Part shown: positions 34,408-37,830 of the stretch, piece after piece
Layout: each line of letters opens with the position of its first letter
Position numbering within the stretch: the first letter of the stretch is position 1
Origin: Escherichia coli
GTDB lineage: Bacteria > Pseudomonadota > Gammaproteobacteria > Enterobacterales > Enterobacteriaceae
Length of the DNA: 64,000 bases
Direction: 5' to 3' (one strand)
Assembly: GCF_003334335.1 (NCBI RefSeq)
Contig: NZ_QOWQ01000013.1
The notes under the pieces: model-generated
What the model saw: the letters and a program-made list of their open reading frames with translations, nothing else
What the model was told of the DNA's origin: nothing
The model's database searches: none
Program-made: the position numbers and the translations under genes

Positions 34408-35187
34408 TTAGTAGCTGCTGGCGCTCTTACCGTCGCCGTGGCCCAGCGCTTTCAACAGGCTTGCCAGCAGGCTGGAAGCGCCAAAGCGGTAGTGACGCGC
34501 ATCTGCCCAGTCAGCACCGAACAGTTCATCTGCAATCGCGAGATATTTCTGCGCATCTTCCGCAGTACGCACGCCGCCCGCTGGTTTGAAACCAACGGTT
34601 TTTTCTACGCCCATATCACGGATCACTTCCATCATGATGCGCGCGCTTTCCGGCGTCGCGTTCACAGCCACTTTACCGGTAGAGGTTTTGATGAAGTCCG
34701 CACCCGCTTTGATGGAGATTTCAGACGCTTTACGGATCAGCGCTTCGTCTTTTAGTTCGCCGGTTTCGATGATCACTTTCAGCAGTACATTCGCTGCCGC
34801 GCAAGCCTCTTTACAGGCTTTCACCAGGTCAAAACCAACCTGCTCGTTACCCGCCATCAGCGCGCGGTACGGGAACACCACGTCAACTTCATCGGCACCG
34901 TAGGCGATTGCCGCACGGGTTTCTGCCAGCGCGATTTCGATGTCGTCGTTACCGTGTGGGAAGTTGGTTACCGTAGCAATACGGATTTCCGGGGTGCCCT
35001 GCTCTTTCAGTGTTTTGCGAGCAATCGGGATAAAGCGAGGATAGATACAGATAGCGGCGGTATTGCCGACCGGGGTTTTGGCCTGATGACACAGAGCAAT
35101 TACTTTCTCGTCGGTGTCGTCGTCATTCAGGGTGGTCAGGTCCATTAATTTCAGTGCACGCAGGCTGCTTGCTTTCAGATCAGTCAT
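34408..35187 (-). CDS. deoC: deoxyribose-phosphate aldolase
   Basis: ORF 34408..35211 trimmed to [50 protein letters not shown] (259 aa). Confidence 0.95.
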
Positions 35188-35231
35188 TTCATTCTCCTGG
35201 CTTGTCGCCAATAAAATTCACCTTGCGAGTT

Positions 35232-35247
35232 TGTTAGTATTCTAACA
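35232..35247. promoter_or_regulatory. DeoR operator O2 (deoP2)
   Basis: TGTTAGTATTCTAACA near-palindrome about 45 bp upstream of deoC start; exactly 599 bp from the perfect palindrome at 35831, matching the published O1-O2 spacing. Confidence 0.7.
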
Positions 35248-35444
35248 TCTACTCCGCAACACACTTCGATATACATCACAATTAAGGAAATCTACTTACA
35301 AGTTTGCATCACTGTAATGCGATCTGGTTCAAATAATTCACTTTCAAATGAATGCGTCAGTGGTGGCAAACGCATCAGGATCAAAGTGAACATCACGAAA
35401 CTTCTTACAATGGCGCATCACCTTCGGCATAAAAGGAAAAGAAG

Positions 35445-36995
35445 ATGCCCACTTCTCATGAAAATGCACTGCAACAACGTTGCCAGCAAATTGTCACCAG
35501 CCCAGTGCTTAGCCCGGAGCAGAAGCGCCATTTTCTGGCACTGGAAGCAGAAAACAATCTGCCTTATCCGCAGCTGCCTGCCGAGGCCCGCCGCGCGCTG
35601 GATGAGGGTGTAATCTGCGATATGTTTGAAGGTCATGCGCCGTACAAACCGCGCTATGTCTTACCCGATTACGCCCGTTTTCTGGCGAACGGTTCCGAAT
35701 GGCTGGAGCTGGAAGGCGCGAAAGATCTTGATGACGCACTCTCTCTGCTGACCATTCTTTACCACCACGTACCGTCGGTCACATCGATGCCGGTCTACCT
35801 GGGGCAACTGGATGCGTTGTTGCAACCGTATGTTAGAATTCTAACACAAGACGAGATCGATGTTCGAATAAAACGTTTCTGGCGTTACCTCGACAGAACC
35901 CTGCCAGACGCCTTTATGCACGCCAATATCGGCCCGTCTGATTCGCCCATTACCCGCGCGATCTTACGTGCAGACGCAGAGTTGAAGCAGGTTTCACCGA
36001 ACCTGACCTTTATCTACGATCCTGAAATCACCCCTGATGACCTGCTGCTGGAAGTGGCGAAGAACATCTGTGAATGTAGCAAACCGCACATCGCCAACGG
36101 TCCGGTGCATGATAAAATTTTCACAAAAGGGGGCTACGGGATTGTGAGCTGTTACAACTCACTGCCGCTGGCGGGTGGTGGCAGCACGCTGGTACGCCTT
36201 AACCTGAAAGCCATTGCCGAGCGCAGCGAATCGCTGGATGACTTCTTTACGCGCACTCTACCGCACTACTGCCAGCAGCAGATCGCCATCATCGATGCGC
36301 GGTGTGAATTCCTCTATCAACAATCACACTTCTTTGAGAATAGCTTCCTGGTGAAAGAAGGGCTGATTAACCCTGAACGTTTTGTGCCAATGTTTGGCAT
36401 GTATGGGCTGGCGGAAGCGGTTAACTTGCTGTGTGAGAAAGAAGGGATTGCCGCACGTTACGGTAAAGAAGCCGCCGCAAATGAAGTGGGTTATCGCATC
36501 AGCGCGCAACTGGCGGAGTTTGTCGCCAATACCCCCGTGAAATATGGCTGGCAAAAACGCGCCATGTTACACGCACAGTCGGGGATCAGTTCCGATATCG
36601 GCACCACGCCGGGCGCGCGTTTGCCGTATGGCGATGAGCCAGATCCGATCACCCATCTGCAAACTGTCGCCCCGCATCATGCTTATTATTATTCCGGCAT
36701 CAGCGACATTCTGACCCTCGACGAAACCATCAAACGTAACCCGCAGGCACTGGTACAGCTTTGCCTCGGTGCCTTTAAAGCCGGAATGCGTGAATTTACC
36801 GCCAATGTCAGCGGTAACGATCTGGTTCGCGTTACCGGTTATATGGTGCGTTTGTCGGATTTAGAAAAATATCGCGCCGAAGGTTCACGCACCAACACCA
36901 CCTGGCTGGGCGAAGAAGCCGCACGCAACACTCGTATTCTGGAACGCCAGCCGCGCGTGATAAGCCATGAACAGCAGATGCGCTTTAGTCAGTAA
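35445..36995 (+). CDS. yjjI: glycyl-radical-enzyme-like protein YjjI (DUF3029), substrate unknown
   Basis: 516-aa ORF with C-terminal glycyl radical motif RVTGY; adjacent activase gene. Confidence 0.9.
35831..35846. promoter_or_regulatory. DeoR operator O1 (deoP1)
   Basis: perfect 16-bp palindrome TGTTAGAATTCTAACA; lies inside the annotated yjjI reading frame (encodes ...YVRILTQ...). Confidence 0.7.
36110..36125. promoter_or_regulatory. candidate DeoR distal operator OE
   Basis: TGATAAAATTTTCACA matches DeoR consensus at 12 of 16 positions, 279 bp beyond O1 (published OE is about 278 bp upstream of O1). Confidence 0.4.
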
Positions 36996-37830
36996 GATTA
37001 TCCCCTTCTCCTGCGTTGACGGGCCAGGCAGTCGTCTGGCTCTGTTTTTGCAGGGCTGCAATCTGCGCTGCAAAAACTGTCACAATCCGTGGACGATGGG
37101 ACGCTGCAATGATTGCGGAGAGTGCGTGCCACAGTGTCCGCATCAGGCGTTGCAGATTGTTGACGGCAAAGTGATGTGGAACGCTGTGGTCTGCGAGCAA
37201 TGTGATACCTGCCTGAAGATGTGTCCGCAACATGCCACGCCGATGGCGCAATCCATGAGCGTGGACGAAGTGCTTAGCCATGTCCGCAAAGCAGTGCTGT
37301 TTATCGAAGGGGTAACGGTAAGCGGCGGTGAAGCCACGACCCAGCTGCCGTTTGTGGTGGCGCTGTTTACTGCTATCAAAAACGATCCGCAACTGCACCA
37401 TCTCACCTGTCTGGTGGACAGTAACGGTATGTTGAGCGAAACCGGCTGGGAAAAATTGCTTCCGGTGTGCGACGGCGCAATGCTCGATCTCAAAGCGTGG
37501 GGGAGCGAATGTCATCAGCAATTAACCGGACGCGATAATCAGCAGATTAAGCGCAGCATCTGTTTGCTGGCAGAGCGTGGCAAGCTGGCAGAACTGCGTT
37601 TGCTGGTAATCCCTGGCCAGGTGGATTATTTGCAACACATCGAAGAACTGGCGGCGTTTATCAAGGGACTTGGCGATGTTCCGGTACGCCTGAACGCGTT
37701 TCATGCCCACGGCGTGTATGGCGAGGCGCAAAGCTGGGCGAGCGCCACGCCGGAAGACGTTGAGCCGTTGGCTGATGCATTAAAGGTGCGCGGGGTGAGC
37801 CGGTTGATATTTCCGGCGCTCTATTTGTGA
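36967..37830 (+). CDS. yjjW: glycyl-radical enzyme activating protein YjjW (radical SAM)
   Basis: 287-aa ORF with CNLRCKNC radical-SAM CX3CX2C motif and extra ferredoxin-like Cys clusters ([22 protein letters not shown]); overlaps yjjI 3-prime end by 29 bp. Confidence 0.9.

Follow-up and report, generated by a model that had tools for sequence, protein, structure and literature searches.

Can a single stretch of DNA be held both as protein code and as the operator of a neighboring, divergently transcribed operon? The question is raised by the deoC-yjjI region of Escherichia coli, contained in the stretch of 64,000 nucleotides analyzed here (the window). A preliminary description, made from the letters alone, had assigned three palindromic sites in this region to a DeoR operator triad and placed two of them inside yjjI. 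The gene layout is that of an annotated, identical E. coli record: the deoCABD operon is on the minus strand (deoD-deoB-deoA-deoC) while yjjI and yjjW are on the plus strand. The first gene of the operon, deoC (34408-35187, minus), was identified from this record and by tblastn (100% identity). Gene yjjI (35445-36995, plus) codes for a 516-residue glycyl radical enzyme of the YjjI family with an NrdD-like fold, and it is the host of deoP1/O1 and of OE. Gene yjjW (36967-37830, plus) codes for the activase of YjjI. A query of 1.2 kb around the triad found matches with at least 95% identity in 5424 of the 5426 complete E. coli genomes. The three sites are very probably the DeoR operators of E. 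coli deoCABD, with O1/deoP1 and OE in dual use inside the translated, divergent yjjI gene.

The operator triad and the deo promoters

The operator form tested was the 16-bp palindrome TGTTAGAA.TTCTAACA, which we take to be the DeoR consensus, or a near match to it. O1, O2 and OE all have this form. Operator O2 (35232-35247, TGTTAGTATTCTAACA; TGTTAGAATACTAACA on the deo, or minus, strand) has one mismatch to the palindrome and is found 45 bp upstream of the deoC ATG, inside the 257-bp deoC-yjjI intergenic region. Operator O1 (35831-35846, TGTTAGAATTCTAACA), within yjjI, is a perfect palindrome with no mismatch, and OE (36110-36125, TGATAAAATTTTCACA), also within yjjI, has four mismatches, being a 12/16 match to O1. 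O2 and O1 are thus spaced by 599 bp (35831-35232) and O1 and OE by 279 bp (36110-35831). The sequences and spacings of the preliminary description are exact at these coordinates. The exact 279-bp figure is presumably the value found in the deo papers of the 1980s.

The window has two sites with at most three mismatches against 0.19 expected, a number reached in one of 100 shuffles. Raising the limit to four mismatches gives four sites in the whole 64 kb, three of which form the O2/O1/OE triad. Since there are only four such sites, the probability that chance places one with four mismatches exactly 279 bp from O1 is ~6e-5. Identification of the triad as O2, O1 and OE of deo, already proposed in the preliminary description, agrees with its place upstream of deoCABD, with the published 599-bp spacing and with the published layout. 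A distance of 599 bp separates the deo promoters deoP1 and deoP2, which DeoR locks by looping (PMC3334521). DeoR binds the single operators O1 and O2, ~600 bp apart and one per tandem promoter, and OE is found ~300 bp further upstream of them (PMC8053113). Loops between all DeoR sites were seen by electron microscopy, O1-O2 looping was measured in vivo (PMC8053113), and cooperative repression by means of DNA loops is described in the same work, citing Dandanell 1987 and Amouyal 1989. The K-12 RefSeq record carries no annotated operator or promoter features in the region, and speaks neither for nor against the overlap.

O1 and O2 each contain an extended -10 motif, TGnTAGAAT, on the minus strand. 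The -10 hexamer of deoP2 (35239-35244, minus) is within O2 and that of deoP1 (35838-35843, minus) within O1. Motif geometry would set the start of deoP1 at ~35831 and the start of deoP2 at ~35232, both on the minus strand. A consensus promoter scan detected neither of the two promoters because both are of the extended -10 type with a poor -35. Its sole return was a plus-strand match over OE (36091-36118) that is considered non-functional. The CRP-1 site of deoP2 (35265-35280, TTCGATATACATCACA, which is TGTGATGTATATCGAA on the deo strand) was identified by motif scan, is conserved in the intergenic alignment and has its center ~40.5 bp from the putative deoP2 start at ~35232. The same 16-mer, TGTGATGTATATCGAA, is a CRP ChIP-seq site reported between yjjI and deoC (PMC4287617). 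The CRP-2 site (35318-35333, TGCGATCTGGTTCAAA) scores 8/10 in the motif scan and forms a conserved alignment block. Its naming, and the location of the CytR target region between CRP-1 and CRP-2, we take to be established knowledge on deoP2. A further conserved block is found upstream of the deoP1 -10 (35856-35882, minus), over yjjI codons 138-146. Its sequence, ATCGATGTTCGAATAAAACGTTTCTGG, includes the palindrome AAACGTTT, and its probable role is that of a -35/upstream element for deoP1 or of a binding site for another protein.

In the mechanism that would follow the published one, the -10 of each promoter is overlapped by an operator, that of deoP2 by O2 and that of deoP1, 599 bp upstream, by O1; OE is positioned another 279 bp upstream. 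Multimeric DeoR would bind the three operators, loop out the DNA between them and repress both promoters cooperatively.

Selection on the DNA shared by operators and protein code

O1 and OE both fall in the open reading frame 35445-36995, in agreement with the preliminary description. O1 takes in the third base of Tyr129 together with yjjI codons 130-134 (V R I L T); in OE, codons 223-227 (D K I F T) follow the third base of His222. The two operators share the same codon phase because 279 bp correspond to 93 codons. The peptide YVRILTQ, attributed earlier to O1, is correct for the third base of the tyrosine codon and codons 130-134, while Gln135 is outside of the 16-mer.

One scan of species-representative genomes yielded 80 yjjI loci, ranging from Escherichia to Proteus. 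In all those with a recovered upstream flank, deoC is the divergent neighbor of yjjI, except in the four Proteus species; in Proteus mirabilis its place is taken by ytjB and serB. The deoC-yjjI gap measures 215-272 bp in Enterobacteriaceae; in Hafnia and Edwardsiella it is wider, ~460-474 bp. A site resembling O1, with at most two mismatches, is found at nucleotide offset 386 of yjjI in 76/76 non-Proteus loci and in none of the Proteus loci. The same 76 loci all carry OE as well, at an invariable 279 bp from O1, while the O1-O2 distance varies between 567 and 675 bp. The deoC-yjjI interval of every linked locus searched has an O2-like site, in 15 sequence variants with one to five mismatches. 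The intragenic operators O1 and OE are better conserved than the intergenic O2. At their operator positions the four Proteus orthologues encode YVG[E/N/S]LT and DAVFG, and nearly every third position varies. Two distant orthologues (57% and 51% identity) adjoin a gene for a yjjW-like activase, without deoC, and have eight to nine mismatches to the operators at the O1 and OE positions. All six unlinked controls (four Proteus and two distant orthologues) are thus without operators, showing either eight to nine mismatches or no site, while deoC adjacency and the intragenic operators were kept together in 76/76 linked species examined.

Nucleotide changes were counted by Fitch parsimony on a neighbor-joining tree of 75 species with yjjI next to deoC. 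The mean is 106 changes per 16-nt window of yjjI. The lowest windows are OE (6 changes, the most conserved of the gene), 35869-35884 (9 changes), the overlap with the yjjW start (17 changes) and O1 (19 changes, of which 14 are at one position, the second base of codon 131). Third positions average 76.7 changes per five-codon window over the gene, against three for O1 and four for OE. The double constraint advanced in the preliminary description is borne out by this count at synonymous sites, as O1 and OE are the lowest of 512 five-codon windows, matched only by windows shifted by one codon. Expected numbers of third-position changes were normalized by the average rate of each amino acid elsewhere in yjjI. 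The ratio of observed to expected changes is 0.036 for O1 (codons 130-134; 3 vs 82.7) and 0.057 for OE (codons 223-227; 4 vs 69.7). It is 1.09 for the deoP1 spacer (codons 135-137), which evolves neutrally, and 0.29 for the block upstream of the -10 (codons 138-146). Values as low as those of O1 or OE did not occur in 200,000 Monte-Carlo draws. Synonymous sites elsewhere in the gene are near saturation (pS ~0.6 between E. coli and Citrobacter or Salmonella). The left edge of the constraint is the first base of the 16-mer at both operators, and on the right side it fades within one to two codons. Judged from these substitution patterns, DNA-level selection at O1 and OE exceeds the needs of the overlapping protein code, and does so only where deoC adjoins. 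In species other than E. coli the sites would presumably be bound by DeoR as well.

The nature of the factor that keeps OE deserves separate consideration. OE agrees with the DeoR palindrome at only 12 of 16 positions, it is overlapped by the plus-strand promoter-like match at 36091-36118, and it matches the CRP core at 8/10 with an exact TCACA half. A CRP ChIP peak was also reported inside yjjI, though it was assigned to 35769-35784. OE might then be kept mainly for a role other than DeoR binding, such as that of a CRP-like site or of part of a promoter (reading TGTGAAAAT on the deo strand and TGATAAAAT on that of yjjI), which we regard as improbable. Published genetics and electron microscopy show DeoR-dependent loops with OE (PMC8053113). 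The -35 part of the promoter-like match is not conserved at synonymous sites, and the strict 279-bp register with O1 fits OE as a partner operator. Note that the weak match to the palindrome, the extended -10-like TGTGAAAAT on the deo strand and the 8/10 CRP core imply that a part of the conservation could serve another protein.

Strong conservation by itself names no cause, and what froze these codons could in principle be selection acting on mRNA structure, codon usage or the protein rather than on DeoR binding to DNA. This possibility has no specific support and is very improbable in view of the codons themselves. Among 77 sequences from linked species (the window included), the O1 codons are GTT in 75, AGA in 55 (AAA in 16, GGA in four), ATT in 77, CTA in 75 and ACA in 77. 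At OE they are GAT in 77, AAA in 66 (AAT in nine), ATT in 76, TTC in 77 and ACA in 77. Flanking codons, such as those of Pro128, Asp136, Gly219 and Gly229, use all synonyms. The operator codons are frozen across Enterobacteriaceae, Hafnia and Edwardsiella, including AGA, the least fixed of them, and CTA. AGA and CTA are among the rarest codons of E. coli, the opposite of what translational selection prefers. The sole common variation is G/A at operator position 6, which is also variable in O2, and the protein shows Arg, Lys or Gly there. Five of the seven AGA, CTA, CGA and ATA codons of E. coli yjjI are in the deoP1 region (AGA131, CTA133, CGA141, ATA142 and AGA151). ACA accounts for three of its 26 Thr codons, and two of these three close O1 and OE.

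Selection on the protein is opposed by the position of the operator residues, which belong to those stretches of the family alignment where variation is highest and indels are frequent. It is opposed also by the orthologues found away from deoC, which lack the sites, with the four Proteus sequences varying freely there. Finally, the constraint sets in at the first palindrome base of either operator and fades soon past the right end. Codon bias and protein constraint as causes of the conservation are rejected on account of the rare codons, the variable stretches and the unlinked controls. A scan of 35000-36400 against Rfam at E <= 1 returned no RNA family, and the structured-RNA explanation was therefore dropped.

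In the YjjI family alignment both operators are located in variable stretches next to indels, which is why the protein tolerates them. The O1 stretch follows a conserved P-[YF]-V motif and the OE stretch precedes a conserved YG[IV][AV]SCYN motif. As no sequence relative of YjjI was found in the PDB, a predicted model was used (AlphaFold, mean pLDDT 91.6, pTM 0.91). In this model codons 130-134 form a five-residue loop between helices 122-129 and 135-152, while helix 219-226 ends, and the next loop starts, within codons 223-227. The closest fold to the predicted one is that of the class III ribonucleotide reductase NrdD. The ancestral O1 peptide appears to be YVGxLT, as in Proteus and in the orthologue with 57% identity. 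Hafnia and Edwardsiella encode the Gly as GGA, at the cost of one to two operator mismatches, while Enterobacteriaceae have AGA or AAA. At O1 and OE the protein sequence appears to follow the operator, and not the reverse, a direction suggested by the outgroups. In the DNA that they share, operator function dominates over the protein code, and the yjjI reading frame fixes the O1-OE distance at exactly 93 codons.

Translation of yjjI and its own promoter

The dual use of O1 depends on the position at which yjjI translation starts. The curated NCBIfam model TIGR04040 (497 positions) is matched over its full length by YjjI residues 11-504. In an exhaustive search, full-length homologues down to ~35% identity gave matches that begin within ~10-25 residues of both N-termini. 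A 19-sequence alignment displays invariant residues before codon 129 (E62, R70, Y71, P74, G83, L102, Y106, G120 and D123). The dN/dS of codons 11-128, computed for the pairs of E. coli with Citrobacter, Salmonella, Enterobacter or Kosakonia, is 0.04-0.08, indistinguishable from that of codons 136-221 and 228-505. By homology and codon evolution, yjjI is truly translated across O1 and OE.

The alternative mentioned in the preliminary description, a yjjI start downstream of deoP1, is refuted by the TIGR04040 alignment from residue 11, the N-terminal homology and the dN/dS values. That the annotated start is wrong and translation begins past deoP1/O1, leaving O1 intergenic and without dual use, can be practically discarded: databases do hold shorter YjjI entries of 402 or 391 residues, the former fitting a start at Met115, but such a start would still precede O1 (codon 129), the family model aligns from residue 11, 18 homologues (to ~33% identity) can be aligned from the N-terminus on and share nine residues, all invariant, ahead of codon 129, the dN/dS of codons 11-128 (~0.04) equals that of the rest of yjjI, and OE, at codon 222, would be inside the reading frame in any case.

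The putative promoter of yjjI is composed of an FNR-like site (35371-35384, plus, CGCATCAGGATCAA, 7/10 of the FNR motif) and a -10 TACAAT (35406-35411, plus), with a predicted start at ~35419. GGATCAAAG and TTACAATG are the sole conserved blocks in the part of the intergenic alignment that carries this promoter. We infer that a class II FNR-dependent promoter drives yjjI, in agreement with reports of an FNR ChIP peak and of yjjI activation by FNR (PMC3688515).

Relation to known systems and possible coupling of deo and yjjI

The region studied is the E. coli deoCABD regulatory region, with identity of organism, sequences, 599- and 279-bp spacings and place upstream of deoC. Its elements are the same, and what is added is their mapping on the yjjI frame and the comparative evidence of double constraint. 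The work on deoP1/O1, deoP2/O2, OE and DeoR looping is reportedly that of Valentin-Hansen, Dandanell, Hammer, Amouyal and co-workers between 1982 and 1989. The operators are thus the original, experimentally defined DeoR sites, already known since the 1980s, and no new elements are described. That O1 and OE are located inside yjjI can be read from any annotated E. coli genome and is, for this reason, not a discovery of new elements either. Within the literature covered, no paper pairs yjjI with DeoR, and a full-text search returned no match to the operator sequences and no paper on intragenic DeoR sites of deoCABD. The new part is the evolutionary measurement of the double constraint, a modest contribution.

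Auxiliary operators in coding sequence are known from lac O2 inside lacZ and gal OI inside galE. The likeness to deo is that a secondary operator of a looping repressor is found within a translated reading frame, its DNA being both code and binding site. These lac and gal operators occur downstream of the promoter, in the very operon they regulate and within its first gene. Deo differs from them in that a whole promoter and two operators are located in a different, divergent gene with its own FNR-dependent regulation. Internal operators are also described inside the galS and deoR genes (PMC3334521).

As deoP1 sits inside the divergently transcribed yjjI, its transcript is antisense to yjjI. 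Transcripts starting at ~35831 would run antisense through ~413 nt of the yjjI 5' region and would cross the FNR-dependent yjjI promoter before reaching deoP2 and deoC. The ~413-nt overlap between the deoP1 transcript and the yjjI mRNA follows from the putative starts of the two (~35831 and ~35419, respectively). In this predicted geometry the deoP1-yjjI pair would resemble the overlapping divergent units, with antisense transcriptional interference, of bacteria.

It is conceivable, though rather unlikely, that the overlap is not simply tolerated by chance but couples the two units in their regulation: DeoR on O1 and OE, and its loops, would repress or block transcription of yjjI-yjjW. Both the FNR-dependent promoter of yjjI and the initial 680 nt of the gene would then be within the O2-O1-OE loops. 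Induced deoP1 would be antisense to yjjI, and anaerobic transcription of yjjI would occlude deoP1. If true, such coupling would tie the uncharacterized YjjI to the supply of deoxynucleosides, and the enzyme might have a role in the anaerobic metabolism of nucleosides or nucleotides.

Long-range repression by DNA looping has one of its founding examples in the deo operators, and the yjjI segments that carry O1 and OE provide a clean, quantified natural case of one DNA stretch used as protein code and operator. The operator wins: it fixes rare codons, limits the amino acids allowed and occupies loops of the protein. In return, the reading frame fixes the O1-OE distance at exactly 279 bp, whereas the intergenic O1-O2 distance has drifted over a range of 567-675 bp. 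A caution arises for experimental work, as synonymous recoding, codon optimization or deletion of yjjI would disturb deo regulation. Phenotypes of yjjI knock-outs may be confounded for this reason. The orphan NrdD-like glycyl radical enzyme encoded by yjjI may be co-regulated with nucleoside catabolism, an idea that is testable.

Spacing and promoter-like features of the DeoR operators

The two DeoR operators situated inside yjjI (35445-36995, plus strand), O1 (35831-35846) and OE (36110-36125), are 279 bp apart in the window and in all 76 yjjI loci adjoining deoC that were compared in other species, because the 93 codons between them carry neither insertion nor deletion. In the same comparison the O1-O2 distance varies between 567 and 675 bp, and of the three operators it is O2 (35232-35247) that varies most. 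The best O2-like site of Hafnia and Edwardsiella is found ~184-218 bp upstream of deoC. Like O1 and O2, OE is similar to extended -10 elements, and this holds for both its plus-strand sequence, TGATAAAAT, and its minus-strand sequence, TGTGAAAAT. A promoter scan gave a plus-strand match over OE (36091-36118) whose -35 part is not conserved.

The region around O1

A third valley in synonymous variation of yjjI spans codons 138-146 (35856-35882; observed/expected third-codon-position changes of 0.29, from parsimony counts on a tree of 75 deoC-linked species), in contrast to the spacer codons 135-137, which evolve neutrally. This block is positioned directly upstream of the deoP1 -10 element and features the perfect palindrome AAACGTTT together with the rare codons CGA and ATA. 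It may serve deoP1 as a -35/UP element or be the binding site of another protein, the latter because its core resembles LacI-family sites.

A published CRP ChIP-seq peak inside yjjI of ETEC was assigned to CGTACCGTCGGTCACA (35769-35784), which lies in the transcribed deoP1 leader, 47 bp from O1. Since DeoR operators match the CRP core TGTGA-N6-TCACA at 8 of 10 positions, this peak might actually stem from O1.

Putative promoter of yjjI

In the part of the intergenic region that is close to yjjI, conservation is confined to two blocks, GGATCAAAG and TTACAATG. The former is half of the FNR-like site CGCATCAGGATCAA, which has a 7/10 match to the FNR motif. The geometry of these elements (35371-35411) is consistent with a putative class II FNR promoter whose start would lie near 35419, in line with an FNR ChIP peak that has been published for the region upstream of yjjI (PMC3688515).

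The yjjI 3' end and the YjjI protein

The yjjI 3' end (codons 505-516, 36958-36995) and the beginning of yjjW (36967) share 29 nt. Synonymous change is lowered at codons 508-516 (observed/expected 0.23), as expected from the overlap of two reading frames.

YjjI is 391-402 residues long in some public annotations (entries P0111-P0113), and the 402-residue length would be compatible with translation from Met115. A public entry of 574 residues (P0004) combines Pfam domains of YjjI and of DeoC; it is probably an artefact of gene calling or assembly spanning the two divergent genes. The sequence search with YjjI gave no PDB relative. YjjI is a predicted NrdD-like orphan enzyme, whose gene adjoins the deoxynucleoside catabolism operon and has regulatory DNA in common with it.
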